From positions 5,467-69,466 of the forward strand of contig CAWJQV010000016.1 in the NCBI GenBank assembly GCA_963844985.1: a DNA stretch of 64,000 nucleotides. Reading direction: 5' to 3'. Numbering within the stretch: position 1 is the stretch's first letter; each line of letters starts with the position of its first letter. Below the pieces are notes generated by a model. It was not told where the DNA came from. It saw only the letters and a list, made by a program, of their open reading frames with translations, and did not search any database. The DNA comes from an uncultured delta proteobacterium (GTDB lineage: Bacteria; Desulfobacterota; Syntrophobacteria; Syntrophobacterales; Syntrophobacteraceae). Shown here piece after piece: positions 1,827 to 55,884 of this stretch. A program made the translations under genes and the position numbers.

Positions 1827-2657
1827 TCAATTGCCGCCACCTGCCGGCATGTTACGCAGACCTTGCCACGGTTCACCCGGCAAGCGGGCCGCCAGTTCAT
1901 GCATGACAAAAGCGGCTGCCTTCTGAAAGTTCCAGCCGCTATCTGCGGTGATGAGCGGGCCAAGATCCTGAGAAAACAGCGGATGATTCAGTTTCTTGAT
2001 CAGGTTTTCTTCGTACTCGGCCCGGGAAACCTTGTGGCCTTCGTGCTCCATGTAGTGCCGGAATGAATCGACCACTCTTTCCGCATTGATGCCGATTTCT
2101 TTGCTGGCGATCCACAGATCGAAGAGATCTCGTCCCTTCTTCCGCTGGTAGAGGGCACGCATTTTGGTCCCCATCAGTTCATCCAGTTGGTAGGTCCGGA
2201 TAGATGCACTGCCCGAAAACCAGCGGGATTTGACCTCCAGCGGCAGCGTCTCCAGGCCGAACACATTGAAATGCTCCCGCGAATTGATTTCCACCTTCAG
2301 TTTGAGGGGAAGGCCATCCTCTGCCCGTATCCGGTACACCAGCGCGACTCGCCCTTCGCTCTGTTTCCATTTCGGAGGGCCGAGCCAGGGGTCAAGGGCC
2401 TCGCGCAAGGCGTCCATGATCGGCCCGACGCCTCCAGCGCGGGTCTGGACCAGGTCAATGTCCTCAGAGTAGCGCGCCGGCTGAAGATGCAGCTTGTAGA
2501 GAGCCGTGCCACCACGAAATGCGAGGTTGTTCGCCAGGATCGGTCGAGAAAAAATCTCAATCAGTGCTCGGCTGATGATGAGATCCTGCTCGACCTGGGC
2601 ATCCTGGGTCCAAGGTACCTGCTGTCGCCACTCTGTAACGTAGTCGCGGGGGATCAC
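1827..2657 (-). CDS. AbiEii/AbiGii-family nucleotidyltransferase toxin (type IV TA / abortive infection)
   Basis: 276-aa ORF with FRGGTALYKLH and SEDIDL nucleotidyltransferase-type motifs. Its GTG start overlaps the AbiEi TGA (GTGA). Confidence 0.8.
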   Translation of the reverse strand: MIPRDYVTEWRQQVPWTQDAQVEQDLIISRALIEIFSRPILANNLAFRGGTALYKLHLQPARYSEDIDLVQTRAGGVGPIMDALREALDPWLGPPKWKQSEGRVALVYRIRAEDGLPLKLKVEINSREHFNVFGLETLPLEVKSRWFSGSASIRTYQLDELMGTKMRALYQRKKGRDLFDLWIASKEIGINAERVVDSFRHYMEHEGHKVSRAEYEENLIKKLNHPLFSQDLGPLITADSGWNFQKAAAFVMHELAARLPGEPWQGLRNMPAGGGN

Positions 2658-3442
2658 AGCTCGACCTCGACTTCGGCATTCACCAGCAGTTGCCAGCGCT
2701 GGTTCTTTTCAGCGACGTCAACCGGCTGGGAGGGAACCAGTGGGGTCACCACCAGCCGCTTCGTGGCTATATACCCGGCCAATGCCTCGGTCTTCTCCGG
2801 CATCCCGACAAGGTCTAATAGATATCCCAGCCGCTGCGCCCAGGTAACCGGAGAAAGCTCTGCAATCTTGGCCAGCTGCGCAGGATCAAGTTTTTCTGCC
2901 AACTCGGCAAGTATCGTAGCCACGCTGTCCAGGCCGCCGGCATGCTGGGGGTAACCCACCAAGTCAAATGCGGTCGTCTCCGGACTGGCGAGCCGCATCA
3001 CGCCCCGGGGCGTGTTTATGGTGCTCGTCGGCATCTCTTCAACGTTCTTCCGAGCAATGAAATCCACGCGAATCTTGCCGCACTCGAGGGGTGCCTTGTT
3101 CCTGGCCGTGACTACCTGGAATACCTGAGGGCGATGGTGGGCGGCACCATGATACTGGGCAGCGCTTAGCAGGCCGGCATAGTAGCTTTCGCCCAGGTGC
3201 TCCATGAGTAAGGGGATGAACTGCTCCGCCGGCAGGCAGCCGAGACTACGGTACTCAGGTGGCACAATCACATAGAACCCCCGGTAGGGCATGGCGATGT
3301 CACCCTTCTTGCGCAGCCGCTGGATGGTGGAATGCACCGCCACATCAGATGAGCCGAGCAACCGTTTGGCCAGTGCCACAGTGAAGCAGTATTCTCCCCT
3401 CGCCGGGAGGTCTATGAGGATTTTGGAGGCAGACACGCCCAT
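2654..3442 (-). CDS. AbiEi-family antitoxin / transcriptional regulator
   Basis: 262-aa ORF with an N-terminal winged-helix-like region (STIQRLRKKGDI) and an AbiEi-like C-terminal domain. It lies immediately upstream of and overlaps AbiEii. Confidence 0.75.
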   Translation of the reverse strand: MGVSASKILIDLPARGEYCFTVALAKRLLGSSDVAVHSTIQRLRKKGDIAMPYRGFYVIVPPEYRSLGCLPAEQFIPLLMEHLGESYYAGLLSAAQYHGAAHHRPQVFQVVTARNKAPLECGKIRVDFIARKNVEEMPTSTINTPRGVMRLASPETTAFDLVGYPQHAGGLDSVATILAELAEKLDPAQLAKIAELSPVTWAQRLGYLLDLVGMPEKTEALAGYIATKRLVVTPLVPSQPVDVAEKNQRWQLLVNAEVEVEL

Positions 3443-9844: not shown

Positions 9845-10480
9845 TTACTGATCACTGTCCAGGACGCCGCGGAAGCTCAGGCGATGCAGGGGGCACGGAC
9901 CATGGCGGCGGAGCGCCTGCAGGTGCTGGGCGGTTCCGTAGCCCTTGTTCCGGGCAAACCCGTAAGCAGGGTAAAGGACATGGTATTCGCACATCAGTCG
10001 ATCGCGATGCACCTTGGCCACAATTGAGGCGGCACTGATGGAAAGGCTGAGCTGGTCTCCCCGAGGGATGCCTTTTTGCCGAATGGGCAGGGGGAGCTTG
10101 TAGGGGCCGTCAATCAAGAGAAAGTCCGGCGGACACTGAAGGTTTCTTACGGCCTCGATCATGGCCTTGAAGGTAGCCTGCAGGATGTTGACCCGGTCGA
10201 TCTCTTCCGGTTCCACGCAGCCGATCCCGATCGCGGAAGCAGAGGAGTTGATCTTCCGGCAGCAGGCTTCCCTCTGCGCCGCTGTCAGATGCTTCGAGTC
10301 CTTGACTCCCGGCAATTCCGCGTTCTGAGGCAAAACAACGGCGGCAGCCACAACCGGGCCGGCCAGCGGGCCGCGACCCACTTCGTCAATCCCGGAAACC
10401 CGCTGAAAACCCCGACGGTAAGCCTCTCGTTCGAAAAACAAGGGGTCCACCGCCGAGGTGACCATGGACTGCTGACGCAC
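9845..10480 (-). CDS. rnhB: ribonuclease HII
   Basis: [25 protein letters not shown] and [12 protein letters not shown] motifs. Confidence 0.9.
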
Positions 10481-10827
10481 TAGCGCTTCTCTTTAATTCG
10501 GGCGGCCTTGCCAAGACGTTGGCGCAGATAGTAGAGTCTGGATCGACGCACGCGCCCCCGGCGCAATACTTCGACTTTGTCAATCTGGGGGGAATGCAAC
10601 GGGAAAATCCTTTCCACTCCCACCCCGTAAGACACCTTGCGGACGGTGAAAGTAGCCGAGAGCAATCCCTTATGATAGCGAATCACTACCCCTTCAAACA
10701 CCTGAACACGCTCCTTGTCCCCTTCGCGAATCTTGACATGCACCTTGACGGTGTCTCCCGATCGAAAGGCAGGGATGTCCATCCGCATAAATTCCCGCTG
10801 GATGCTCTCCGCGACACTCATCCCCAT
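10480..10827 (-). CDS. rplS: 50S ribosomal protein L19
   Basis: 115-aa ORF with [29 protein letters not shown]. Confidence 0.95.
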
Positions 10828-10886
10828 TTCTCATCCTCCATTCCCAGCCATGAGAACCAACCCTCAAGGCTTCTGTTCAAAGTTAT

Positions 10887-11459
10887 CTACCGGTCCATAT
10901 GAAGAAGGCGATCCATCAGAATAGCTGCTGCACAGCGCACTGACAGGTGGTTGTATCCACCTCTGCCCGGGATCGCATGAAGTACTGCATCCGCCTCCCT
11001 GATCACCGCAGGGGCCAAACCCCAGGCGGTTCCGAAGAGCAGAAGACAGGGCCGACGGGCGTTCGCCAGCCGCCGACGGGCCTGTCTGTGGGTCAGGGCT
11101 CCCGGCTGTTCGTTTGCCGTGGTGGCCCAAACCAGGGGTGCTTCCCCCCATTCCGCGTGAATCTCCTCCTTGACTGCGGCAATATCATCCGCAATCCTTA
11201 AACGCTTCAAGGCCTCTTCCCGATCAGGGTGCAATTCCTTGCCGATCCCTTTGCACCAATGGTCCAGCAGGCGCCTGATCAAGACCTTCTGGTCGTGCAA
11301 GGGCGTTACGATGTAGCAGGCCGGGACTGCATAAGTACGGGACGTACGCGCCATGTCATGCAGGTCCAGGTTGGTCATGGCCGAAGCAATGATCTCACCC
11401 TTGCGGTTGACGACCGGGTAGTGCACCAGGGCCACATAAAGCGGAAACGATTTCGTCAA
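10887..11459 (-). CDS. predicted SPOUT-type RNA methyltransferase (Methyltrn_RNA_4-like)
   Basis: LVHYPVVNRKGEIIASAMTNLDLHDMARTSRTY pattern. It sits between trmD and rplS. Confidence 0.6.
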   Translation of the reverse strand: MTKSFPLYVALVHYPVVNRKGEIIASAMTNLDLHDMARTSRTYAVPACYIVTPLHDQKVLIRRLLDHWCKGIGKELHPDREEALKRLRIADDIAAVKEEIHAEWGEAPLVWATTANEQPGALTHRQARRRLANARRPCLLLFGTAWGLAPAVIREADAVLHAIPGRGGYNHLSVRCAAAILMDRLLHMDR

Positions 11460-11514
11460 CGGCAGCGGCTACCCCCGAAGGTTCTCCAACAAAAGATCTG
11501 CAGCTGCGGCCCGG

Positions 11515-12303
11515 TCAAGACCGCACCGAAGAGTGGATATTTCGATCCTGCACCTGCTGCGACCTTTGAGCAAATTCCTTCTCCGCCTGCTGAAGCAGTT
11601 TCCGGTCCGGATCCGTCAGTTCCAGGCGGGCAAACAGATCGGGGCGGCGCAGCTTGGTCCGCAACAGGGCCTCACCTCTCCGCCATCGCTGAATCGCTTC
11701 ATGGTCACCCGAAAGCAGAATTTCCGGCACCCGGTGCCCTCGGAAATCCCGCGGGCGCGTGTACTGGGGAAACTCGAGCACCGGTTCCGCAAACGACTCG
11801 AATCTCGGCGAAGCGACATTGCCCAGGACCCCGGGAATCAGCCTGGTAACGGCATCCACCACTACCATGGCCGCCAGTTCGCCTCCGGTCAGAACATAAT
11901 CGCCGAGTGAAATCTGCTCATCGGTAAAGGATTCGGCAACCCGCTCATCCACCCCTTCATAGCGTCCGCAAATCAAAACCAGGCGGGGCAAAGCGCTCCA
12001 TCTCCAGGCACATTCCTGCTGAAACACGCGCCCCTGGGGGCTGAGCAGCACCACCCGGGGCCGGGGTTCCTCTGCTCTGAGCGTATCCAGAAGACTCACG
12101 ATCGGTTCGGGTTTCATAACCATGCCTTCGCCGCCCCCAAAAGGGCGGTCGTCGGTGACCTGATGTTTATCGACGGCATAGTCTCGGATATTGTGGACCC
12201 GAACGCTGATCAGACCCCGCTCGTGAGCTTTTCCCACGATGCTTTCCCGCAGAGGAGATTCAAACATGCCGGGGAACAGGGTTAAGATTTCAAAGATCAT
12301 CAA
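11515..12303 (-). CDS. trmD: tRNA (guanine37-N1)-methyltransferase
   Basis: [44 protein letters not shown] motifs. Confidence 0.92.
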
Positions 12304-21988: not shown

Positions 21989-23009
21989 TTACAGCAGTCC
22001 CCGCTCGATCAGCAACTCGGCGATCTGAACGGCATTGGTGGCCGCCCCCTTGCGGATGTTGTCCGCCACCACCCACATGACCAGACCATTCTCCACCGAT
22101 GGATCCTTCCGGATGCGCCCCACCAGGGTATCGTCCTGGCCCTCGGCGGCAAGCGGCACGGGGTAGTGCTTTTGAGCCGGGTCGTCCACCACGCGCACTC
22201 CGGGAGCGTTCTCCAGAAGGGACCGCACCCGGTCAACCGAGATCGGAGCCCTGGTCTCAATGTTCACCGATTCCGAGTGGCCGTAATAAACGGGGATGCG
22301 AACGGTTGTGGCACAGACCGCGATTTCAGGGTCATTGAAGATCTTGCGGGTCTCGTTGACCATCTTCATCTCTTCTTCGGTATAACCATCTTCCAGAAAG
22401 GCCCCGATATGCGGGAAGCAATTGAAGGCGATCTGGTAGGGGTAGATTTCCCTTCGCACCTCGTTGCCGTGCATGACATCGGACACCTGTTGACGCAGCT
22501 CCTCGATAGCCCGCTTCCCGGTACCCGATACCGCCTGGAAGGTGGTCACGACGATTCGTTTGATCCCCACCGCATCCTGGATGGGTTTCAGCGCCACCAC
22601 CATCTGAATGGTCGAACAGTTGGGGTTGGCGATGATATTGGGGTGAGGGGCCACGGCATCGGGGTTCACTTCCGGGACCACCAGCGGGACCCCGGGTGTC
22701 CATCCGAAATGCGCTCGAGTTGTCGATCACGACACATCCGGCCTGTGCCGCCAGGGGAGCAAATTTCTTGCTGACCGAACCTCCCGCGGAAAAAAGAGCG
22801 ACATCGATCCCCGCAAAGGAATCCTCCCGAAGTTCATAAACCGGATGTTCCCTTCCTTTGAAAGGAAGCGTTTTCCCGATGGATCGCGCCGAAGCGAGAA
22901 GTTTCAGTTCGCCAACCGGAAACGCTCGCTCTTCAAGGACTTTCACCATAAGGTTGCCAACGGCCCCGGTTGCTCCAACCACCGCCACTTTGTACGATTT
23001 TTGCGCCAT
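21989..23009 (-). CDS. asd: aspartate-semialdehyde dehydrogenase; frame broken near 22685-22700
   Basis: The N-terminal piece (VAVVGATGAVG ... NSSAFRMD) and the C-terminal piece (PLVVPEVNPDA ... NPNCSTIQMV ... QAVSGTG) lie in frames offset by one base. Confidence 0.88.
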
Positions 23010-23124: not shown

Positions 23125-23201
23125 CTCACTGCTCACTGCTTACTGCTTACTGCTTACTGCTTACTGCTTACTGCTTACTGCTTACTGCTTACTGCTTACT
23201 T
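23125..23201 (+). repeat. 11-unit heptanucleotide tandem array (2x CTCACTG, 8x CTTACTG, 1x CTTACTT)
   Basis: Read directly. The leuB stop codon (TAA, 23189-23191) and last codons lie inside the array. Confidence 0.95.
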
Positions 23202-24261
23202 ATATAATCTGCCACCAAGTCCCCGACCTCGGTTGTGGAATACCCCATCTGGCCGGCAGACAGGTTCTTGATATCCGTCCCTACCACCTTGCGGAGGGCA
23301 TTTTCGATGCGGCCGGCGGCACGTTTCTCGCCGAGGTTCTCCAGCATCATTTGAGCTGCGGCAATGGCCGCGAGCGGATTGATGATGTTTTTGCCGGTGT
23401 ACTTGGGAGCGGAGCCGCCGATGGGTTCGAACATCGACACTCCGCCCGGATTGATATTACCCCCGGCGGCAATCCCCATCCCACCCTGGATCATGGCCCC
23501 AAGGTCGGTGATGATATCTCCAAACATGTTGTCGGTTACAATCACGTCAAACCATTCCGGGTTCTTCACCATCCACATGACCGTCGCATCGACATGGGCG
23601 TAATCGGTCTGGATGTCGGGATACTCCGCTGCGACCTCATAAAACACCCGTTCCCAGAGGTCGAAAGCATAGGTCAGGACGTTGGTCTTGCCGCAAAGGG
23701 TAAGCTTTTTCCGCTTGTTGCGCCGACGGCAGAAATCGAATGCAAACCGGATGCACCGCTCAACTCCCAAGCGGGTGCTGATGGACTCCTGAATGGCCAC
23801 CTCATGCCGTGTCCCCTTCCGCAAGAAGCCGCCCGACCCGGTATACAGCCCTTCCGTGTTCTCGCGGACGACAACAAAGTCGATGTCTTCCGGTCCTTTG
23901 TCCTTGAGCGGCGTTTCCACTCCCGGATAAAGGATCACCGGCCTCAGGTTGACATATTGGTCGAGCTGAAAGCGGAGTTCCAGGAGCAGGCCCTTTTCGA
24001 GAATCCCGGGCTTGACTTCGGGATGGCCGATCGCCCCCAGGAGGATCGCATCAAAGGTCTTGAGTTCTTCCAAGACGCCGGCGGGAAGGGTTTCTCCCGT
24101 GCGCAGATAGCGCTCCCCCCCAGGTCGAAATGGACCAGACGCACCTGGAAGTCTTCTTTTTCCGCGACGGCATGCAGCGCCTTAATGGCTTCGCGAACCA
24201 CTTCGGGCCCGGTGCCGTCGCCGGCAATCACGGCAATGTTATAGGATTTTGTATTCCCCAT
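23189..24261 (-). CDS. leuB: 3-isopropylmalate dehydrogenase; frame broken at the C7 run 24115-24121
   Basis: The N-terminal piece (YNIAVIAGDGTGPEV ... HFDLGG) and the main piece (LLGAIGHP ... VRENTEGLY ... DNMFGDIITDL) are offset by one base at a 7-nt homopolymer. Confidence 0.88.
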
Positions 24262-27812: not shown

Positions 27813-28815
<1,003 letters not shown>

Positions 28816-31443: not shown

Positions 31444-32217
31444 GTGGAGTGTTGCGGCAGGAATCTTGACGTTAAATGGCGATTAACCAAAGGCGAAGCC
31501 AAACTCTTCAACGGCACCGAGATCGAGAAAATGGCCGACTCCGCCTTCGGCAAAATGTCGTTTTTTATGCCGGTGGGATTTTCCCAGCAACTGGATAAGA
31601 TCCGAACACTATTCGTACCGCCGGGCAAATTCACCAAGGATTATACGGGAAAGGAGAAGATCATTAACGACCTTCGGCGGGCAATGATCGAGCAGAGGCG
31701 CTGCACGGTGAGATACCACTCCTTCAGTTCCGGGAAAAAGCGGGAATATGAACTTGATCCCCTGCGGTTTTTTGAGAATAACGGCGGGCTCTATGCCTTC
31801 GTCTACATTTGTGGATACAATGAAATTCGAACCTTGGCAGTGGAGCGGATCGAGCGGTTGGAGGTAACCGATGTCTCCTTCGATTATCCCGAAGACTTCG
31901 ATCCCGAAAAACTGCTCACTTCAGCCTTCGGCATCATCTTCGACAAACCCTTCCAGGTTAAAATCAGGTTCTCCAAAGAGGCCGCACCGTACATCCGGGA
32001 GCGAACGTGGGCACCCGTTCAGCAGCTTACTGAAAATGAAGTCGATGGCTCGCTCATTCTGGAAATGGAAACCCTGGGCTGGCTCGATGTCAAGAAATGG
32101 GTGCTATCCCACGGCGTGCAGGCGGAACTCCTGGAACCGAAGGAAATGAGGGCCGAAATTGCAGAGGAACTGAAGAACTGTCTCCTAAAATACTCGACTT
32201 CCTCGGTTGCCCGGTAA
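31444..32217 (+). CDS. WYL-domain regulator lacking an intact N-terminal HTH
   Basis: VRYHSFSSGKKREYELDPLRFFENNGGLYAFVY (WYL domain) plus a C-terminal extension. The upstream ORF 31272-31469 is in another frame. Confidence 0.7.
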   Translation: MECCGRNLDVKWRLTKGEAKLFNGTEIEKMADSAFGKMSFFMPVGFSQQLDKIRTLFVPPGKFTKDYTGKEKIINDLRRAMIEQRRCTVRYHSFSSGKKREYELDPLRFFENNGGLYAFVYICGYNEIRTLAVERIERLEVTDVSFDYPEDFDPEKLLTSAFGIIFDKPFQVKIRFSKEAAPYIRERTWAPVQQLTENEVDGSLILEMETLGWLDVKKWVLSHGVQAELLEPKEMRAEIAEELKNCLLKYSTSSVAR

Positions 32218-32355
32218 AGTACAGAACTGATTCTTATCCACGAAGTCAGCGCTGCGATTCCGGCCATTTTATGCAAATTATAGGCTCAGCTTCGATGTTT
32301 ATGTCGGGGTAAAACAGGGGAGATGGCATTGGCTTTTTCATTCTCGGACAAATTC

Positions 32356-32571
32356 CTAGACAGCGTCCTTTATCAGTTGGTACTTGACGGGCAGCAATTG
32401 TTCCAAATTCACATGGACTGAGGCGTTCATGATTTCGATGCCGATGATCCTGTCCCCCGCACCCACGTCCAGCACGACATCTTCTGTAATCCGTCGGTTA
32501 ATGGTCTCCTGCCGCCTATCATCAAGGCGGATATAAAGAAGATCCGTCTTGTTGTTATAGAGAATGTTCAT
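32356..32571 (-). CDS. DUF2283-family protein (antitoxin-like)
   Basis: MNILYNNKTDLLYIRLDD ... VLDVGAGDRIIGIEIMNAS pattern, starting at an internal Met of the 89-aa ORF. Confidence 0.7.
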   Translation of the reverse strand: MNILYNNKTDLLYIRLDDRRQETINRRITEDVVLDVGAGDRIIGIEIMNASVHVNLEQLLPVKYQLIKDAV

Positions 32572-33745
32572 CTTTCTATCTCCCATTTCCCATAGAATAC
32601 GTAAACCGTAACCGTTATGATACAATCTCTCTCGGTAACAAAGAAGACCTCAACTCGTTTTTGCTCGTAATACTTCTGTCTGATTCGCAGAGGATGAGCA
32701 GCAGCCAAGCAAAGAATTTACTGTTAATCTGTCTCATCTCAACCTCCTTGGATTCTAAGAATTCTGGGCAGTTAAGGCTGACGACACTCCTAAAGCTGTA
32801 AGATGAAACCGTTTGACTGACGATAGCTCCATGAAGCTAGGAAGGGTTGTTAACAGGGTAACGAAGTTTCCTGAGATTTCTGGATTATTATATATACTAA
32901 AATCTTTTCATGTGAGACGCTCATCTCAGAGTTTGATTGAGCTTTCCCCTGCGAAATGTGGAACAGGAAGCATTGTTATTTGACCATCCTCACCTTCCGA
33001 AAAGCGTGTAGACGATGGTAAAAGCTTTGAATAAGGCGTTTAGGCAGACGTTTTCAAATTACATACACAGCATGAAGATTTTTATTTTACCGTCGCTACG
33101 ACTCGGTGTCAACAGCATCCGGAGGTGCGGTGTAGACATCTCAACCAGCGGCAAAAGGAGAAATCTTCTCTGGCTTATCGTCACGGTTCCGGGTTTACGG
33201 CCAGTTTTTTGACCTGAGTCCCGGATTCAGTGGCTGACACTCCGAGTGTTATCGAGAAAAAGGGCATTTCAGTCGCATAGTGCCATGAGAACGGCACTGC
33301 AGCCAGGTTGTTTGGTCGTAAAGGGAATGTCCTGCCGTCCGTCATGAGGTGTCCGCCCAGATGATAGGTTCCTGCTTGGTGACCCTATGAAGCAGAGCAA
33401 GATAGAGCGTTTTCATGGATTCCAAAATGACCCAACAAGAATTAAGGAACATATATCCTCCCAGAGAGCTTTCTTGCTGCCTATTTTATTTATTTCAGGA
33501 CAGCTTGGAAGGGGTGCAACAGAACTGCCGAGTTTGGTCGACGAGGAAAGCCAGCGCCATCATCCACCCAACCCGACGCGTCACGTACAACCCAAGCCCG
33601 GAGGAGTCGCAAGGCTCCCTCGGCTCTTGCTCATAAAGCCGGCCTGCACGTTCCGGAAAAGTCTGGAGAGATCGCCTTAACATCCCACCAAAGTGAATAT
33701 ATCTTAACAAAATGCTTACTTAGATAAACTGGTAACCTCAAACAG

Positions 33746-34995
33746 TTAATTGGCTGAACTGTTTTTTCTTCTTCTAAAATAATAGGCTGCACTCACCAAC
33801 AGAAGAACAGCCATCATTGAGGTCCCCCATTCATTCATTGCCGGGATTGCTGCAATGGGTTGTGTCCAGCCATCGGAGAGCGTCTTCAGGAACGCGACGA
33901 TGGCAAGCTCCTCCCCGTGGTTCAATCCAAGATTTCCCATTTCTGTTGTGTTGATGTTCACAGCTACTTCCGGGGCGGGCCAGCCCGCGCCGGGAACGTC
34001 CCTCGTGTTGTAGAAGTGAACGATCTCCTCCAGCGACTTGAAGTAGCCATTGTGGCCGTACGCCTTCACGAACTTCTTGGTGGGCCGCAAGTCCACGTTG
34101 CGCAAGGTCGGGACCTTGAACTTGCCCCACTCAGGCCCCCAGACTGCTCCGGGTAACCTGCGGCCTTGAGGAAGCCGCCCAGGCCAGGGTCAACCCAGTT
34201 CGCGCCGTCCGGGTTCAATCGGGCATCATTGTAGAACGGATTCAACGGGTTCCGGGGCACGCCCAGGTTATCGTAGGTGAAATCTGTGAAGAGAGGGGCC
34301 ACATGACAGTTGGCGCACTTCGCCTTGCCGTTGAAACAGCGCCAGGCCCCACTGCTCCTGGCCGGTCAACCTGGCCTGCCCTTTCAGCCAGTAGTCGTAC
34401 TTGGAAGTGAACTGGCTGACCTCTTCGGATCGCTCGTACGCTGCGATCGCAGCGGCCGATGCACTCGTAACTTGGTAGTGCAGGGTCGGTGCAGACCTGA
34501 AGGAACAGATCCTTGTAGCTCGATGCCAGCACTTTATCAATCACGGCCTGCGCGCTGGCGTTGTTCTGCTCCAGCGGGTTCAGGAAGGGGCCCTGGGCTT
34601 GTTCAGCCAAGGGGTCGCCAAGGGTCCAGCCGGTTGCCCTACCATCCCAGAACATACCGCCAACCCACTTGGTTCCATCCCAGTGCAGAATAGGGCTATC
34701 GCCAGCATAGGCGGATGCAGGCGGTTTTCGGTTCCCGAACCGGCCAGCTACTGCACCTTCATAGACTGCCCCTGCTGCATTGATGGCCTCATCAGGTCCC
34801 GTCCATCCCACAGTCGGCCCATGGCAGACCGCACAAGACTGGCCAGGAGGAGTTGAGAGATTTGTGTCAAAAAATAAATTCTTTCCTAACTGCTCTTGCG
34901 GTGTTAGACCTGAATTGCCCTGAGCAAAGACAATCCAGAAAACTCCGAACTACCAACACTACCGAAAGCATAGCGATAATCTTCTTGTTCATCAT
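33746..34995 (-). pseudogene. di-haem cytochrome c peroxidase family protein with an IPTL-CTERM-like tail; at least 3 frame breaks
   Basis: Pieces carry CAVCHGP (my own translation at about 34810-34830), FLNPLEQNN, FTDFTYDNLGVPRNP, YGHNGYFKSLEEIVHFYNTRD, and the terminal IPAMNEWGTSMMAVLLLVSAAYYFRRRK. Confidence 0.7.
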
Positions 34996-35734
34996 CAAGT
35001 CCTCCTTTCTGACCGAACAGCACAAATGGGTCTGCAATACCTTTCCCTAGACCGATCACCTCCTTTCAGCTTCTAACAACAACCCAGCGTACCACAAACT
35101 CATCCTTTGACAGTCCGGCCGCCTTATCAGAAGACCCGCAGAGAGACACAGAAACTCCCTGGGGCCTTTGCATCGGCACCTTCAGGAGCTTCTCCTCGGT
35201 TCTACGGGTATAAGAGTGATTGCCCTTTCAGGGTGACGGCGTTTCCCACATGGCCACGACTGCTTCATGATCGTTAGGCCTAACGGCGGCCGTTTTCTGG
35301 AGGACCTTGGACCGCAGAGACTCATTGCTTGGGGCAGAGAATGGACAGCTACTGAGAATAGGATGACGAACACCACTCCACACCAACCTGCTCCTTCTTT
35401 GACGAGAAAACGGTCGTTCATGTGCGTGGGTCCCATGAACGATGTTAGCCGTAACAATTGTTCATGTCAAAGCAAAAAGGGTGGTTGTGAAACGTATCTT
35501 GTACGGGCGACTACCGAGCCATTTGATGGGCCGTGCCGGAGCGTCATTGCCAAGTATCCGAGAGGGGTATATGCCGTCCTGACATGTTAGTTTGATGGGC
35601 CATCTTCTTGGCCTTCAGTGAGTCAAGGAGAGCTGCTTCGGTACTGTATTAACTGACGCCAATCTGGCTTTGCCCCCGACGAGATGGCCATGTTTCAACA
35701 TCAAAGCGTCTTCCCTCAGGGCAGCAATGTAACA

Positions 35735-35946
35735 TTAACAGAACCAGCACATTAAGGTGGTGATGGCTCGTTATTGATAGCCGGAAGATATCTTGCCACA
35801 AGGTTGCATCCCACCAGAGGAAGTTCGTATAGAAAGTATGATCTGGAGGTAGCAAATCTTCAGATTGCCAAAATTTCACTGATCAGGAGAGCAAATGTTA
35901 GAGACTTTTCCTCAATCTGCCAGGCTTCGGTTTCGCAGCGGAACGG
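35735..35946 (+). repeat. junction repeat copy A (full length; further 3' homology to about 36135)
   Basis: TTAACAGAACCAGCAC ... CTTGCCACAAGG ... GTATGATCTGGAGG ... ATCAGGAGAG-caa-ATG ... GCGGAAC. Confidence 0.85.
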
Positions 35947-36264
35947 ATAATCATTCGGATGGGGTTAGCCCTGAACCGTCAACCCACGGTGTCTCTCGCC
36001 AGTGTGAATCGTCTCTTCAAAGGCAGGCACGATTGATGATATCAAAAAGGAATAGACTCAAGCCTTCAGCCGAATTGTGCATACAAGGTAGCTGTCGCCA
36101 GATTTACTCGCCGCCAATCAGAGAGCTGACCTCTACCGATTTGGGGCAAATCGCGACCTAGAAATGTTTGACGACGCTGCGGAGGTCGAGTAGGTTCCAG
36201 AAACAGGGCGAAAGAGAGTTTTCCCTCAATATAACACAATGATTTTTAGGAAAGGATAGAAAGG

Positions 36265-36732
36265 ATGCTCTATAAAATTGTTTTGAGTGCTGTGGCTTTG
36301 CTGCTTGCCTGTTCTTTCGGGTATGTCTCGCCGCGGAGGTCGGCGATACGGATGCTCACAGAGGAACTGCTGAAGTTCCAGGGCACCTGGGTCATGGTGT
36401 CGTCAGAAAAAAGTGGCAAGCTGGTGGCAGACGAGCGTGTGGACCGGACCAAAATCTTATATGAGGGAAAAACGGGATGGAAATTTGAGCCCAACCATCA
36501 TCCGGAACCTATAATCTTCGAGATTTTAGATATCGATACCTCAAAAGAGCCAAAGCAAATGCGTGCCATTGAAAAGAATGGACCCAGTATGGGCAAGACG
36601 CTTGTAGCGATCTACAGATTCGAGGGCCCCGATCAATACACGTTTGCTTACGACCCCAGTGGGTCCACAATACTGACGGAGTTTACCACTAAAGAAGGAA
36701 CAGAGCACATTCGTAAACCTGGAAGCGCGTGA
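36265..36732 (+). CDS. secreted lipocalin-like protein (TIGR03067-like domain)
   Basis: Signal peptide, then LKFQGTWVMVSSEKSGK ... LVAIYRFEGPDQYTFAY pattern. An AGGA motif lies upstream. Confidence 0.5.
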   Translation: MLYKIVLSAVALLLACSFGYVSPRRSAIRMLTEELLKFQGTWVMVSSEKSGKLVADERVDRTKILYEGKTGWKFEPNHHPEPIIFEILDIDTSKEPKQMRAIEKNGPSMGKTLVAIYRFEGPDQYTFAYDPSGSTILTEFTTKEGTEHIRKPGSA

Positions 36733-37676
36733 AGCCGTGAGATCCTTAATTGTTTCGAGTCGGGTATAGAGACTGTCTGATTTTTCCGCCAGCAGATCAC
36801 GAATGACCCCCACAATCGATATTCCATATAGGCAAGCGTTACGGTCTCGCTCCTGCTGCTGCCTCTTGTTCAGTATGACGAGCCCTCGCGCAGCATATCA
36901 ACCATGCATCGAGTGAAGAGGGACGCGCTTTGACATTAAACTATGTATGGCTCGGTATCTCGATCGTGATGCCAAAGTTGTGTGCGTCAAGTTCTGAAAA
37001 TTCGATTAAGGCATATGGCGCCTATTTCTTACTTTGCTTCCCGCGACAAGCAAGGAACCTAGCCGTGGAGGGCCGCCGAGAATGGGTCCAACCGTGACTC
37101 GCCGGAGGTGGCCCAAAGGCAGTGCCTTGAAACGAAAATCGCATACCAAACTTGCGCGCAAGTATCCGGGGGCCTTCATCACCCGACCTTTTATGCAAAC
37201 CCGATTATCTGCCACACTGAAAAGTGCAATTATCTTAACATCTTCAAGTCCTTAAGAGCAGAGGCAAATCGTTGAAAATATCCCATTGAAATCCTCACCT
37301 TTTTGATCGTCGATTTTGATCGAAGGAAGGCAGCTATTTACCCCAAGCGAACAGTCGAGTGTTTTTTGCTCCCAACTCCCCACAACACAACGACAACTCC
37401 TGATGATTTTTGTCATTCGTTGCCAAAAGATTGGCATAAATTCGGTTGACAGCATCCACATCGGGCGCTAGCGTAAATGACTTAAGGAGTAATTTGTTCT
37501 TCCTTTCAATATCTAATGGTTATGAAGGAAGGCGCAGGCTCCTTCCTATACAATTCAGAGAGGCATTTCCCCCTCTTGGTAAAGCTTTGAATCTTTAACG
37601 GGTTAGTAGAAACAATATGTAAGCAAATATACAATCGTACCGTGGGAGCCAATGTCGAGAAAGGAGGCTGATTCGC

Positions 37677-38881
37677 ATGGATAAAAGGATTTCTTCGTAT
37701 CGGGAGCTTGCCCTTTTTGGAGTGCTTGCTGCAACTTTGGTTTTGTTCATGCTGGTCCTGCCGGTGCCTCGCCAACTTATCAGGTACACAAACTTGTCTC
37801 AGACATTTCGGGACTTGCAGACAATTTCGATCCGAATCTCAAAATCCATGGGGGATTTCGTCCGGCCCAACCAGTCCTTTCTGGATTTCGGATAACCACG
37901 CCGGTGTTGTTACTCTTTACAATGGCAACGGCCAGCCCTTCCCGGTGGTAAGCCCCCTAGTCGTCACGGTTCCTCCGCCTTCAGGTGGAACCCCTCCCTC
38001 TACACCCACTGGACAAGTATTTAATGGAAACCTGGCGAGTTTTAAGATTAACGGAACTGCAGCGAGCTTTATCTTTGCGACGGAGGATGGAACAATCTCG
38101 GGTTGGAATTCAGGTTCAGGGACCAATGCCATCCGTACAGTAGATAATTCAGCATCTGGCGCGGTCTATAAGGGGCTTGCCTGGTAACAACGGCACCAGC
38201 GATTTTCTTTATGCCGCCAATTTTCACGCTGGGACCATTGATGTGTTCGACAGCCTCTTTGCACCTACCACCTTGGCTGGAAACTTCACCGATCCCAATC
38301 TGCCCAGTGGGTTTGCCCCATTCAATATCCAGAACCTGGGAGGGAAGCTTTATGTGACCTATGCGAAGCAGGATGCAACCGAACATGATGATGTCCCCGG
38401 TCCAGGCAATGGTTTCGTCAATGTTTTTGATTTGAACGGCAATCTTTTCAATCGTCTCATTTCTAATGGAGCCCTTAACTCTCCATGGGGATTGGCATTG
38501 GCTCCTACCAATTTCGGTGATTTCAGTAACACCCTTCTAGTCGGAAATTTTGGCGATGGACTCATTAATGCCTTCGATCCCGGTACTGGTGCCTTTCTCG
38601 GTCAAATCCAAGATGCTTGGAGAACTCCTATCGTGATTAAGGGATTATGGGGACTGAAGTTTGGCAATGGGGGAAATGGTGGTGATTCCCATACGCTGTA
38701 CTTCACGGCTGGAATTCCAGGTCCCTCTCCAGGCGCGGTGGAAGACCATGGGTTGTTCGGCAGCATCAAACCCGTCCAACCGGCGGTTGTCCCAGCATTC
38801 AACCATTGGGGTTTACCCGTGTTCGCAGTCCTTTTGCTCGCCTCGGTCTGTTGGGTCGTGAGAAGAAGGAGAAAGACATAG
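37677..38881 (+). pseudogene. TIGR03118-like secreted beta-propeller protein with an IPTL-CTERM-like tail; about 3 frame breaks
   Basis: LVSDISGLADNFDPNLK / NPWGISSGPTSPFWISDN / LYAANFHAGTIDVFD / NSPWGLALAP / GNFGDGLINAFD read across three frames. The tail is VPAFNHWGLPVFAVLLLASVCWVVRRRRKT. A strong AAGGAGG motif precedes 37677. Confidence 0.65.
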
Positions 38882-38909
38882 GCCTGATAATCCTGTGGAC
38901 TCCTCCTCT

Positions 38910-38943
38910 GGCAGGGTCAGCAATGGTCCTGCCTTTCTTCTTG
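38910..38943 (+). terminator. rho-independent terminator candidate
   Basis: GGCAGG-gtcagcaatggt-CCTGCC followed by TTTCTTCTT, 29 nt after the stop at 38881. Confidence 0.5.
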
Positions 38944-39017
38944 GCGAGTCGAGAGGGTGAATGGTAACCGACCAATTTCATCGATTCCGAGCGTTAACCA
39001 GCACAAAAGTCATTTAC

Positions 39018-39174
39018 TTAACAGAACCAGCACTTTAAGGTAGTGATGGTTCGTTACTGATAGCCGAAACATATCTTGCCAGAACCTTGAACTCGCAGGG
39101 ACAGCGGATTCCTTGAGGGTATGATTTGAACGTGGTGAATTCTCGGGATGTCCAGATTTCAAGGACCAGGAGAG
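39018..39174 (+). repeat. junction repeat copy B (full length)
   Basis: TTAACAGAACCAGCACTTTAAGGTAGTGATGGTTCGTTACTGATAGCCGAAAC ... CTTGCCAGAACC ... GTATGATTTGAACGTGG ... ACCAGGAGAG. Confidence 0.85.
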
Positions 39175-39668
39175 ATGCATGAAGGCCACCGGCTGCAAAA
39201 TACTCCCGACTATTTCGATCCAATCAGCCACCATTTTTCAAAGAACGACACACCCTGTCTCGGCTCCCCTCAATGATACCGGAGGTATCCACTGACCAGA
39301 AGACCCCACCTGATGGGCATTCCACCAGCATCATTTTCAAAGAGTTGTCGGCTCATCGATCCAGGCAGTACGCTCGTTTGCCTCCGAGGTGACGGGTATC
39401 ATTTCCAAGTCCACGGGTGACACGAGCAACTTAAATGGCCGAGCCGAAGTCACGAAGGACTGGCAGTGAATGTTAGAATTTGTCCCTCCCGTCCAGGACT
39501 CAGGCAACAGGAACGCATTCCTTGGGCCACGCGCGTTATTGGAAAACCTTGGGCTCGGGCCTTGTGGACTGAATAAATGTGATATTATCCGCATACTTGC
39601 ACAACATCAAAAAAAGTGCTTAGGTTTATGAGAAGTTCGACAATTTCAGCATTTAGGAGAAAGAAGAA

Positions 39669-40028
39669 ATGAATAAAGAGGCGGATACAGCAAATGAGAT
39701 GATCAAGCGTTTGGCATTGTCTTTGGATAGTATTTTTCAAAGGGCAGAGGAATTGAACGCCTCCTTTGAGCGCAGCCCAAAGCCGCGCCAGAGAAAGATA
39801 GTTGAGATATTACACAAGCATGACATTCCCGCATGCGTGGGACCGTTCTTTGATTCCTATTCCAGAATCAGCGCGGCCGGAGGGGATATTGAGCAATTCA
39901 GCCACATGATGGTAGAAAGGCTTTCTTCTTACCTTCAAGAAGACCCCTCCAAGGTTGCGATACGATTCAGGGAAGCGATTGCGGATTACGTTGAATTCAG
40001 GAGCCGTGACCTGGACGAAGGCCGCTAA
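39669..40028 (+). CDS. hypothetical protein
   Basis: 119-aa ORF preceded by AGGAGAAAG; no recognisable family. Confidence 0.35.
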   Translation: MNKEADTANEMIKRLALSLDSIFQRAEELNASFERSPKPRQRKIVEILHKHDIPACVGPFFDSYSRISAAGGDIEQFSHMMVERLSSYLQEDPSKVAIRFREAIADYVEFRSRDLDEGR

Positions 40029-40405
40029 AGCTTTAATCGCCATATCAGATGAAAGTCCCACGGGCATGGATGCATATATGGTCAATATGATGGCCACGCC
40101 TTCTTAGCCCTCCGGACCCCGGCAACAAAAACACGTGGCCGGGGTGATATGCCTTCTGTCACCAGTTCGCTAAGGGGGTCTTGCAAATCAAGTTATCGGA
40201 GTCTACCAGGACGGGCCAACAGAAATCGCCTTGGCGATCCCGGTTAATCCTGTGGGATTTGGGAAAGCAATGGTTTCGCTTGCCCATATTGCGTTATCCT
40301 GAAATCTTTTGTTGGTGGCCGAATATGATCCGCATGTGGTGGGTTTGATGATGGGTGGGTTCCGAAAGCCATAGGAGAGCTCAATGAACTTCGAACACCA
40401 CAGAA

Positions 40406-40687
40406 TTAAGCGGCGGCTGGAACTGATATGGACTCGATGCCTACACCAAGGAACGTGATGACGCCACGTAGCCGCGCCGTCCGCTTGAATGAAAGTTGGG
40501 CATCATTCCGATTCACTAAAGAGAAAAGTTGCTTCTGCAGTTCCTGAACTATTTGAGAGCGGATAATGCCCATGTCCTTTTCGTGTTGGTCAAATTCGTC
40601 AACGGCCTCCGCCAAAAGTTCACAAATCGTCGCTGCCCAGAGCATCTCGCCTAATGTCCGGGGACAGGATAGGTCTGCTGCGATCAA
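40406..40687 (-). CDS. hypothetical protein
   Basis: 93-aa ORF 29 nt downstream of the MerB-like frame; no recognisable family. Confidence 0.3.
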   Translation of the reverse strand: MIAADLSCPRTLGEMLWAATICELLAEAVDEFDQHEKDMGIIRSQIVQELQKQLFSLVNRNDAQLSFKRTARLRGVITFLGVGIESISVPAAA

Positions 40688-40716
40688 GATTAATCTAAAT
40701 CAAAGCGCGAAGGCCA

Positions 40717-41424
40717 TTAGGGAGTCCAGAAGGGACCCGCCTTGCCCAGCTTCTTCAGCGATAAGATCAGCTCCGATGCATATTCGTTCAGTCGAGAGAG
40801 ATAGTCGGGCTGTAGGCGATTCCTGTGCAAAGGCCCACTAAACGCCGTTGCCCAGTTGGACAAGGACATGATGGACTCAGCCGAAACGGGATCATAAAGC
40901 GACCAATTCTTCACATGCTCTTCCGACCGGAAGAGATTCATGCGGCTTCAAGCCGAACCCCAGGTCACTTCTCCTGTTAAAGCCTTGGCGAACGGAATAT
41001 TCATATGTCCTACGGTCGTTGGTGGATTGACTTCGAGGATCTCCTCGTCACGCATGCGGACGCGGATGGGTTGCCCACAATCCAGGCAACTGGTGTCGAT
41101 ACGGATCTCCGTACCGGGGAAAAGCCAGCGCACGGCCAGCACTTCGATTCCTCACTGTCCGTACCACTTCTGTTCCCCCTTGATCGTTACACGATGATGT
41201 GTCGGTACGTTGGAAAAAGGCGCCCATGACTCAACGTAGTCTGTGTCTCTGACAAACCAGCAGGCTATGGAGGACTCGGCTGCCTTGCGCTGCAAGTGCC
41301 TGGCCTCGTCTGGTCGCACCCCGAGAATTCCCGCAAGCTCGGTATAGTGCGGTGCCCGCCCAGTCTTCACAAAATGCTCCACAACAGCAGTGTAAGCTCG
41401 TTGCACCAATGTGGTTTCTTCCAT
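40717..41424 (-). CDS. MerB-like (alkylmercury lyase family) protein with two in-frame TGA codons; candidate selenoprotein
   Basis: ORFs 41152-41424, 40948-41142 and 40717-40941 share one frame and are separated only by TGA at 41152-41154 and 40948-40950. The joined 235-aa product resembles MerB (GRAPHYTELAGILG; WYGQ-TGA-GIEVL; TSCLDCG; GSA-TGA-SRMNLFRS). Confidence 0.6.
40915..40941 (-). promoter_or_regulatory. SECIS-like hairpin after the second TGA
   Basis: AUG-AAU-CUCUUCC-GGUC-GGAAGAG-CAU. The 7-bp stem starts 12 nt after UGA, and the GGUC apical loop starts 19 nt after UGA. Confidence 0.55.
41119..41145 (-). promoter_or_regulatory. SECIS-like hairpin after the first TGA
   Basis: GAAG(U)GCUGGC-CGUGC-GCUGGC(U)UUUC gives 10 pairs including G-U, with one U-U mismatch. 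The loop contains GU 19-20 nt after UGA. Confidence 0.4.
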
Positions 41425-41536
41425 GTCATTTCCTCCCTTTCAGTTGTCATTTGGTACCGCGTATCGTTGACCACTGCCTTGGCGCTCAACTGGTGTAGCC
41501 TGCCAGATGGAGCGGCTTGTTGGCGGCCAACCGTGA

Positions 41537-41888
41537 TCATAAACCCTTCGGCAAAATCTTTGCAACAAACGACTGAGCGACGATCTTACCGTCCTGAACA
41601 ACGAATGTGTCTGTCGCCAGGTCGTAACGTGTTGTCGGCCGTCTCGGCGGTCCACAAAATGTAGGCATAGTCACCTTTGATGGACTGGTGCTTCAATTTG
41701 AACGAAGAACCAGGTTTTGCAAACTCTGCCAAAAGACCCTCGAATAACGGTCTGATAGCGTCGACTCCCTCTAATGGCCCGTCTGGCGTAAACAGGATCG
41801 CCGTGGGTGCGTAGTCGGAGAGGATGCCATTGAGGTCGCCCTCGCCAAAAGATTCCAAGTGGATGATCGACAACATCTTTCGTCGCAC
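41537..41888 (-). pseudogene. SnoaL/NTF2-like protein with a C-terminal frameshift
   Basis: GDLNGILSDYAPTAILFTPDGPLEGVDAIRPLFEGLL ... YAYILWTAETADNT then, after a 1-nt shift, YDLATDTFVVQDGKIVAQSF. Confidence 0.5.
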
Positions 41889-42003
41889 TCATGTCTTGCT
41901 CCTCCGTTGTTGGTTCTAATTCCTCGCTTCAGCGATCAGCCTTGTCTGAGTCGTCTCTTTGGTGGCCATCGGCCCTTAGCCGGCACAGACCAACTATTTT
42001 ATA

Positions 42004-54845: not shown

Positions 54846-55884
54846 GCAAAGTGGGTATGCACTTTACTCAACCGGCCGAGTAGCGTAGCATGTGCTCGTG
54901 GAAGAGCAAAGACACCCGATTTCCGGCATTGATTATCCTGGAACGTTCCAGGAGTTTGAGGAATGGTTTAGTGGCGAAGATGCCTGCCTCGACTACATTG
55001 CCAAGCTTCGGTGGCCAGATGCTTTCTGTTGCCCCAGTTGCCGAGACACCACGGAAAAGCCCTCTATGATGGGGCGAGGCCTCTTTCTTTGCCGAAAATG
55101 TAAACGGCAAACATCTGTAGCTGCGGGGACACTGTTTCACAAGACCCACAAACCCTTGCGAACTTGGTTCCTTGCCATGTGGTTCGTGACAAGCCAAAAG
55201 CATGGAGCTAGCGCTCTCGGTTTGAAAAGGGTTCTCGGACTTGGCAGCTACAATACAGCGTGGATTTGGCTTCATAAGCTGCGTCGTGCGATGGTGCGCC
55301 CTGGTCGAGATCAATTGACCGGTGCCATTGAAATTGATGAGACATATGTTGGAGGCCGTGGGACGAAGGTCCGTGGGCGAGGTGCTGAGCGAAAGTCGAT
55401 TGTTGCCATAGCAGCAGAAGTCCGGGGACGCGGTCCTGGCAGAATACGCATGTCTGTTGTTGCCGATGTGTCCGCAATGAGCCTTCACAAATTTCTTTTG
55501 GATAACGTGGAAATGGGAGCTGAAATCCGGACTGACGGCTGGAACGGGTATAAAGGAATCGAGAAACTGGGCTTCAATCATATTGTGACAAATCTCGCTG
55601 CAAGTGGAGATCCTGCTCATGTGGTTATGCCTCGTGTTCATCGTGTTGCATCTCTGTTGGACCGTTGGTGGCTTGGGATTCACCAAGGGGCTATCCGTCC
55701 GCAACATCTTGACTACTATCTTGATGAGTTCACATTTCGGTTCAATCGCCGCGCCCCCAAAGCCCGAGGTCTACTCTTCTACCGCCTGATGGAGCAAGCG
55801 GTGGATTGCGCCCCCAGGCCCCGCCAGATGATCGTAGGGGGTGGACCGGTGGATGGTTGAGCTAAGTGCATACCCACTTAATGC
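54846..55884 (+). mobile_element. IS1595-family (ISXO2-like) insertion sequence
   Basis: Terminal inverted repeats GCAAAGTGGGTATGCACTTTA (54846-54866) and TAAGTGCATACCCACTTAATGC (55863-55884) flank the transposase gene. No clear target duplication was seen. Confidence 0.8.
54892..55860 (+). CDS. IS1595-family transposase
   Basis: 322-aa ORF with an N-terminal zinc ribbon (CPSCRD ... CRKCKRQTS) and the ISXO2-like DDE domain (IEIDETYVGG). Confidence 0.85.
   Translation: MLVEEQRHPISGIDYPGTFQEFEEWFSGEDACLDYIAKLRWPDAFCCPSCRDTTEKPSMMGRGLFLCRKCKRQTSVAAGTLFHKTHKPLRTWFLAMWFVTSQKHGASALGLKRVLGLGSYNTAWIWLHKLRRAMVRPGRDQLTGAIEIDETYVGGRGTKVRGRGAERKSIVAIAAEVRGRGPGRIRMSVVADVSAMSLHKFLLDNVEMGAEIRTDGWNGYKGIEKLGFNHIVTNLAASGDPAHVVMPRVHRVASLLDRWWLGIHQGAIRPQHLDYYLDEFTFRFNRRAPKARGLLFYRLMEQAVDCAPRPRQMIVGGGPVDG

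Follow-up and report, generated by a model that had tools for sequence, protein, structure and literature searches.

The 64,000-nucleotide stretch of DNA analysed here (hereafter the window, from an uncultured delta proteobacterium) contains a minus-strand reading frame that resembles the organomercurial lyase MerB and is interrupted twice by TGA, raising the question of whether these codons mark a gene in decay or encode selenocysteine (Sec) in one that is functional. In the original prediction, made from the letters of the window, three open reading frames (ORFs) were described as sharing one frame split by TGA only; translation agrees, the frame 41424–40717 giving 235 codons with just two in-frame TGAs and no other stop or frameshift across 708 bp. 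We regard it as very probable, from comparison with related sequences, that the gene encodes a genuine two-Sec selenoprotein; the explanation that we prefer overall, and hold with nearly the same confidence, is of a functional MerB-fold gene in which Sec would stand in for both metal-ligating cysteines, the two UGAs being recoded via hairpins. The elements of the gene are as follows.

40717–41424, minus strand: predicted MerB-fold selenoprotein coding sequence (CDS), complete at 235 residues, from ATG (41424–41422) to TAA (40719–40717), with two UGA-Sec codons read through; delimited by the common layout of ~70 distinct relatives
41432–41437, minus strand: Shine-Dalgarno-like GGGAGG, 7 nt 5' of the ATG, read off the sequence; putative ribosome-binding function
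41152–41154, minus strand: UGA codon 91, predicted selenocysteine 1, equivalent to MerB Cys96 by alignment to MerB structures
41143–41145, minus strand: codon for Glu94, +3 from Sec91, equivalent by alignment to the MerB proton donor Asp99
41077–41088, minus strand: C113-L-D-C116 motif, an invariant set of columns; C113 aligns with the structural Cys117 of MerB, C116 is extra
40948–40950, minus strand: UGA codon 159, predicted selenocysteine 2, equivalent to MerB Cys159 by alignment to MerB structures

The two UGA columns among MerB homologues

The homology to MerB, proposed from the translation, is borne out by a match of the joined product (stops masked) to Pfam MerB PF03243, with E=2.2e-16 and 60.4 bits (gathering cutoff 27) over profile positions 1–116 of 126. 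HMMER alignment against the MerB structures 1s6l, 3f2g and 5c17 places the first TGA on Cys96 (YAW-C-ALD against YGQ-U-GIE) and the second on Cys159 (SF-C-CHVHFF against SA-U-SRMNLF), with Glu94 at the position of Asp99; the claim that both stops fall on the catalytic cysteines, which depended on exactly this alignment, therefore stands. The structure that we modelled (AlphaFold2) was that of a natural Cys/Cys homologue, P0011, which is 55% identical to the window protein. The model scored well (predicted local distance difference test 88, predicted template modelling score 0.85), and all significant Foldseek matches in the PDB (the top 11) were to MerB or MerB2 (best E 5e-10, TM-score 0.42–0.71), from which we conclude that the family is predicted to have the MerB three-dimensional fold.

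The comparison set comprised 87 loci (L001–L086 plus the window, including some repeat recoveries of one gene). The codon state is TGA/TGA in 77/87 and TGY(Cys)/TGA in the other 10/87, across at least five phyla, a recurrence that excludes chance; column 2 is TGA in all 87, with Cys at this position in P0011 (locus L087) and in distant relatives. The expectation that homologues would carry Cys or TGA in both columns was thus found to hold: distant full-length relatives (20–44% identity) have Cys at both and D/E at +3, the Sec/Cys pairing among homologues is seen at both TGA sites, and the +3 Glu is invariant in the close family. Layout is uniform, with 88–93 residues (~90) before the Sec/Cys, 65–68 residues to the next Sec and ~77 residues to a terminal GKxGPFW, usually followed by TAA/TAG. 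No extra stop codon was present in the core of any of the 87 loci, and frames were intact bar two copies from long-read metagenome-assembled genomes (MAGs) with apparent indels near the gene ends. The ratio of nonsynonymous to synonymous substitution rates (dN/dS) relative to the window sequence is 0.09 before the first TGA, 0.17 between the two and 0.11 after the second, and from these values we conclude that all three segments are translated and selected. Ordinary decay in relatives, named at the outset as an observation that would count against recoding, is not seen; frames are intact and under purifying selection.

The family is not confined to the window's own lineage. A one-genome-per-species scan (GTDB r232) returned at least 573 related loci, and the best 80 of these, from which taxonomy was taken, include Nitrospirota/Thermodesulfovibrionales, Chloroflexota (Anaerolineales, Dehalococcoidia), Acidimicrobiia/Actinomycetota, Myxococcota and others, with Desulfobacterota represented by "delta proteobacterium" MAGs, Syntrophobacteraceae, Syntrophorhabdus, Geomonas and Desulfobacterales. 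Two MAGs carry two paralogues each (L056 and L074 in CBDTXZ01; L077 and L083 in JASFPE01); in one such MAG, a Sec/Sec form fused to a cyclase domain sits alongside a stand-alone Cys/Sec form. The CLDC motif (C113/C116) is restricted to the two-Sec clade, MerB having the first Cys only.

Hairpins downstream of the two UGA codons

Each UGA is followed by a candidate selenocysteine insertion sequence (SECIS) hairpin.

41124–41140, minus strand: SECIS-1, stem GCUGGC/GCUGGC of 6 bp including two G-U pairs, loop CGUGC at 41134–41130
40912–40944, minus strand: SECIS-2, lower stem 40944–40939/40917–40912, a 3-nt bulge, upper stem CUCUUCC/GGAAGAG at 40935–40929/40924–40918 and a GGUC tetraloop at 40928–40925

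SECIS-2 has a lower stem of 6 bp and an upper stem of 7 bp, and presents its GGUC loop at nt 23–26 counted from the U of UGA. It folds at −16.6 kcal/mol (z=−2.86, 0/200 shuffles as stable) and is also recovered as an RNAalifold consensus. The most telling evidence is at the codon level; the five consecutive codons CTC TTC CGG TCG GAA are used in 67, 70, 70, 70 and 68, respectively, of 70 distinct sequences that share 44–93% protein identity, and no other synonymous sites are frozen among 44 conserved degenerate columns spanning most of the gene, with the adjacent conserved Asn, His, Tyr and Asp using their synonymous codons about evenly. The Cys/Cys homologue P0011 retains the encoded peptide (M-N-I-F-R-S-E-D) using the codons ATA TTT CGT TCT GAA GAC, and the hairpin is lost. 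We considered whether this freezing might reflect ascertainment bias from an MNLFRSEE search pattern, and rejected it because loci recovered with the other pattern or by protein search, variant peptides included, have these codons frozen as well; the Cys/Cys homologue, found by protein search, lacks them. Where the loop varies, the change (GGUC to AGUC) retains the G-U.

SECIS-1, whose loop lies at nt 21–25 with the G-U at nt 22–23 from the U of UGA, was obtained only by consensus folding, as the RNAalifold structure of 40 sequences (loop N-G-U-N-N). Pairing is complete (6/6) in 63/63 TGA forms, as it is in 13 further loci, and falls to 3–6/6 in seven distinct sequences with Cys at column 1. 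Its stem bases are fixed even where the encoded residues vary (V/A/S at +4 is always NNG, R/S/C at +8 always NGC), and this constraint is not seen in the Cys-at-column-1 forms. On these alignments, nucleotide-level constraint at both hairpins is specific to the TGA-bearing copies. The original prediction had placed a hairpin with a GU-containing loop after each TGA; both are indeed present, with the proviso that hairpin 1 is thermodynamically weak and draws its support from comparison between relatives.

It had also likened the loop of the second hairpin to the GGUC of the E. coli fdhF SECIS, and this comparison held when checked against E. coli genomes (5,412/5,420 E. coli records match at ≥99%, the listed matches falling under fdhF). 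Folded in the same way, fdhF presents its GGUC loop at nt 22–25, with the G-U at nt 23–24 from the U of UGA; the G-U lies at nt 24–25 in SECIS-2 and nt 22–23 in SECIS-1, within one nucleotide of fdhF at both sites. The likeness thus extends to an in-frame hairpin directly 3' of the UGA and, for SECIS-2, to an identical tetraloop, whereas the stem sequences differ and SECIS-1 has a 5-nt loop atop a G-U-rich 6-bp stem. The feature expected of a bacterial SECIS (a G, usually in G-U, within an apical loop ~16–37 nt downstream) was found at both sites.

Several observations count against selenocysteine insertion and should be set beside this evidence. tRNA-Sec was sought in the window and the flanks of 81 loci, and sel genes were sought among 40 ORFs of the window; neither the 64-kb window nor ~1.3 Mb of sequence from related loci yielded selA, selB, selD or tRNA-Sec. 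The covariance-model search that had been proposed as a check gave nothing, Rfam models returning neither a SECIS nor a tRNA-Sec, whether over the whole window at gathering thresholds or on 40600–41500 at E≤10; we treat the Rfam SECIS result as uninformative because curated models poorly capture bacterial SECIS elements. SECIS-1 is not the minimum-free-energy fold of the single sequence (z about −0.8), a criterion that we set aside because the authentic fdhF SECIS scores z=−0.67 too. Compensatory covariation is essentially absent from either stem in the RNAalifold alignments, owing to the near-invariance of the stems; the sole double change converts the outermost pair C16-G33 to U16-A33 in L078 and L082. 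Lastly, a small sub-clade bears Ser/Cys or Ser/Trp at the two columns.

The members of this sub-clade (L088:563–1273 and L089:661–1374; proteins P0002, P0007 and P0008) are 75–85% identical to the window protein and have TCA (Ser) at column 1 and either TGT (Cys) or TGG (Trp; L089 is a true TGG) at column 2, each one base from TGA. Both SECIS hairpin sequences are still intact in these loci, and Sec coding seems to have been lost from them very recently, perhaps in a lineage that had lost Sec decoding. Ser at the Cys96 position is expected to cripple MerB-type catalysis.

Two readings would dispense with selenocysteine altogether. One is that the locus is a pseudogene decaying in an accessory region through two nonsense mutations, as its lower-GC, ORF-poor surroundings, which also hold a frameshifted SnoaL-like gene, might suggest; the comparative data refute this and we give it almost no weight, since the same two TGAs are kept across phyla within intact frames, with dN/dS of ~0.1 downstream of each, and the 708-bp frame of the window itself has acquired no further stop or frameshift. 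The other is that UGA specifies one of the standard amino acids (Trp, Cys or Gly), whether by read-through or by reassignment. This draws on seven JGI protein records that show W at both columns (P0001, P0003–P0006, P0009 and P0010) and on the true TGG at column 2 of L089; however, the DNA underlying P0001 (L002:39–746) has TGA, and the standard code does not reproduce the record, L002 being evidently a short contig whose gene was called under a table in which TGA encodes Trp, and the same would apply to the remaining six, for which protein records are available. Against reassignment, TGA is an ordinary stop in the window, closing 9/21 confident genes and occurring in frame in 0/21; within the family it is found only at the two Cys-homologous columns, each accompanied by a conserved SECIS-like hairpin that decays where Cys replaces TGA. 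The two readings were rejected on TGA conservation, dN/dS and the window's TGA usage; we consider reassignment very improbable, if a shade less so than a pseudogene.

Placement and possible function of the probable two-selenocysteine family

The two-Sec proteins resemble two described groups without belonging to either. Scores fall below the cutoffs of both NCBIfam MerB equivalogs (NF009710, 22.8 bits against 193; NF033555, 20.0 against 200) and of the SaoL hidden Markov model NF040728 (41.9 bits against 140, with only residues 57–137 matched), and no model in NCBIfam release 20.0 claims the window protein; as judged from these profiles, the family is neither canonical MerB nor SaoL. With canonical MerB (EC 4.99.1.2; E. 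coli plasmid R831b; 1s6l, 3f0o, 3f0p) and MerB2 (5c17) it has in common the fold and the active-site spacing, X91-x-x-acid94 ... X159, at a sequence identity of 13–19%. The triad here would be Sec/Glu/Sec in place of the Cys/Asp/Cys of MerB, so that positions are kept and the chemistry is predicted to be analogous, not identical. The C-terminal region is ~25 residues longer than that of MerB, and the gene lies outside a mer operon (no merA, merR, merT or merP).

SaoL, a MerB-like organometallic lyase selenoprotein (NF040728), is the marker of a nine-gene sao operon present in ~50 species; its single Sec belongs to a Cys-Sec dipeptide and is equivalent to Cys159, and the C96 and D99 positions are occupied by Cys and Asp (Haft and Gwadz, bioRxiv 10.1101/2022.07.06.499078 / J Bacteriol 2023). 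Shared with the present family are the PF03243 fold, a Sec at the Cys159 equivalent, database records truncated at that UGA, anaerobe hosts and, for SaoL, a substrate suspected to be not mercury only. The differences are the second Sec, the Glu acid and the absence of a sao operon, together with the residue preceding the Sec, which is Cys in SaoL whereas Ala precedes Sec159 in the window and in 40/70 relatives (Ala, Asn, Gly or Leu in the translations inspected, never Cys).

An inventory from 2026 that covers 119 prokaryotic selenoprotein (sub)families has SaoL, with its CU motif and one Sec, as the sole MerB-like entry (PMC13188914). No description of a two-Sec MerB homologue was found in the literature searched, a coverage that stopped short of Haft and Tolstoy 2025 (mSystems) and Deng et al. 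2026 (Cell Rep); an earlier description in those two papers is the less likely in that PMC13188914 cites both yet names SaoL only. The suggestion that a Sec-containing MerB homologue would be unusual therefore needs qualifying, since a one-Sec form, SaoL, was already published, and it is the second Sec and the separate clade that are new. By sequence, the two-Sec subfamily appears to be a new variant beyond SaoL, absent from the literature searched, and would add to the 119 of the inventory. Other two-Sec bacterial proteins are known, namely the UxxU metal-binding protein NF041115 and an FmdB-family UxxU protein (PMC13188914). These likewise carry two Sec per polypeptide, presumed to act as a grip on one metal or as a diselenide, with the Sec residues 3 apart; here they are 68 codons apart, each with its own SECIS within the CDS, whereas a single downstream structure could in principle serve both Sec of a UxxU protein. 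The present family would thus be a rare bacterial case of two distant Sec, offering a natural test bed for the efficiency with which bacteria decode two UGAs per message.

Existing records obscure the family. Our protein search recovered full-length relatives bearing W at both columns, others of ~157 residues that end directly before column 2, and fragments ending WYGQ, directly before column 1; a search of 1.84 billion representatives found the family in pieces that end at residue 90 or start at 93–98 or 161, the boundaries being the TGAs; and GenBank holds truncated members of 158 and 163 residues under the name "organomercurial lyase". Because members are recorded as fragments, as truncated lyases or with Trp mistranslated, surveys of merB and of selenoproteomes alike miscount the family. 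It is a common one, given at least 573 loci at one genome per species, and the lineages that carry it are important to the cycling of mercury, sulfur and metals.

On the reading that we prefer, translation would start at the ATG at 41424 and end at the TAA at 40719–40717, with the hairpin 3' of each UGA presenting a G-U apical loop ~22–25 nt away, in the SelB geometry of E. coli fdhF; Sec-tRNA(Sec) would be inserted at both UGAs in place of termination, and dependence on SelB and incorporation of selenium would follow from that likeness. By homology, the two selenolates (Sec91 and Sec159) and the Glu94 carboxylate would meet in the MerB active-site pocket, there to bind a soft metal or metalloid and, most likely, to cleave a carbon–metal(loid) bond by MerB-type protonolysis or at least to sense it. 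Two selenolate ligands should radically alter both soft-metal affinity and product release, and may support chemistry beyond classical mercury resistance.

Whether such a site would turn over its ligand is less secure than its selenium content, and by analogy with MerB we put a catalytic organometal(loid) lyase, as opposed to a binding or sensing module, at a little below an even chance. Three considerations tell against catalysis: mer or sao genes do not recur around 69 loci, in ~20/87 loci the frame reads through into a fused class III cyclase or AAA domain, and Hg(II) held between two selenolates is, on chemical reasoning, hard to release. The fusions are the following.

L003:10001–11182: cyclase fusion of ~393 residues; also L004–L006, L045, L048, L049, L051, L053, L054, L056, L060 and L063
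L035:about 10001–11560: AAA ATPase fusion of 519 residues with a ~290-residue C-terminal extension; also L036 and L043

In the cyclase fusions, found in Acidimicrobiia and Actinomycetota, the MerB-like frame passes the second TGA and continues into a class III adenylate/guanylate cyclase domain; gene callers divide this one frame between two genes, "MerB" of 158 residues and "Guanylate_cyc" of 232. The fusion exists in both Sec/Sec and Cys/Sec versions. The AAA fusions come from Anaerolineales and related MAGs and, by their C-terminal continuation, also include L038, L044, L058, L064, L069 and L076.

These fusions lend themselves to the alternative that the MerB-like domain of the two-Sec protein binds its ligand (a soft metal, an organometal or a reactive selenium/sulfur species) in order to sense it and control an output, and is not a turnover enzyme, the stand-alone form acting via a partner or via an N-terminal winged-helix-like region. 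Apart from the cyclase and AAA read-through at ~20/87 loci, a sensor would be in keeping with the failure to find a mer operon or conserved metabolic neighbourhood across 69 loci, and with weak Foldseek matches beyond MerB to winged-helix DNA-binding domains over ~60 residues (LexA 1lea, probability 0.98, target-normalized TM-score 0.66), which we take to fall on the N-terminal region. However, canonical MerB has a comparable N-terminal region, and the triad C/U-x-x-[D/E]...C/U, acid included, is kept even in distant relatives, as catalysis predicts; we accordingly hold both the sensor and this account of its stand-alone form to be unlikely on balance, though serious contenders. More doubtful still is a redox role, in which the Sec pair would form a redox-active diselenide, possibly relayed to C113-x-x-C116, making the protein an oxidoreductase and not a carbon–metal lyase. 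Most prokaryotic selenoproteins are redox proteins (PMC13188914), the CLDC motif is both extra and invariant, and the two Sec positions are adjacent in the MerB active site by homology; yet the fold is that of MerB and not thioredoxin-like, and it is not obvious what the +3 acid would do in a dithiol/diselenide relay, so that we rate this reading as improbable.

Beyond the choice between lyase and sensor, we advance with considerable reserve the broader proposal that these proteins constitute a large, unannotated two-Sec MerB-fold family, spread horizontally among anaerobic and soil/sediment lineages (Desulfobacterota, Nitrospirota, Chloroflexota, Actinomycetota) and acting independently of mer as an enzyme or sensor for methylmercury or another organometal(loid). 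If this is true, the family would be a candidate for the as yet unassigned demethylation activity of anaerobes, and the fusions would place a selenium ligand site in direct control of cAMP synthesis or an AAA ATPase, a new selenoprotein signalling module. The cyclase and AAA fusions also provide an experimental handle on the ligand recognized by the two-Sec site.

Genomic context and probable mobility of the locus

When 735 ORFs flanking the gene at 69 loci were clustered, no conserved neighbour emerged (the best cluster, of generic PAS-GGDEF proteins, spans 11 loci), and a mer-like or sao-like operon was rejected on this basis. In the window the gene is flanked by a frameshifted SnoaL-like gene, an MBL-fold (ODP) protein, an extradiol dioxygenase and a rhodanese-YceI protein; outside this neighbourhood the window carries ordinary chromosomal genes (ffh, trmD, H+-PPase, kup, ilv/leu genes, ABC-F and a DEAD helicase).

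Alignment to the nearest relatives (L007, L008, L009, L011, L014 and L020, from MAGs labelled Nitrospirae/Nitrospirota, Thermodesulfovibrionales or "delta proteobacterium") is limited to window positions 40685–41441, such that the ~750-bp gene alone aligns, at 81–91% nucleotide identity (85–91% for L007, L008, L009 and L011). The SnoaL-like gene is upstream in the window and directly downstream in L008, L014 and L020, the flanks being otherwise unalignable. That the gene aligns and its flanks do not indicates horizontal exchange and suggests, at the level of sequence, that the gene may be a small mobile or recombining cassette.

The stretch of the window at 32000–42000 is lower in GC (0.48–0.53) and ORF-poor; an IS1595-family transposase is encoded at 54892–55860 and an AbiEi/AbiEii toxin-antitoxin pair at 1827–3442. 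The region around the locus looks like an accessory or island segment. The SnoaL-like gene (41537–41888, minus strand) is split by a frameshift, and several housekeeping genes (ilvC, leuB, asd) are seen only as incomplete ORFs, each covering a portion of the corresponding Pfam profile (27813–28526, 23189–24073 and 21989–22681). The breaks in other genes of the window, described in the original prediction as frameshifts, look like indel errors of the assembly; their pattern is typical of long-read data and not of biological decay, and says nothing on the MerB-like locus.

A ~650-residue NADH:flavin oxidoreductase (similar to old yellow enzyme/2,4-dienoyl-CoA reductase) lies near the MerB-like gene in 7 loci, at a median distance of ~32 nt and on the opposite strand in 6/8 copies (for example L068:10724–12686, labelled Chloroflexia), and is the only hint of a lineage-specific partner.

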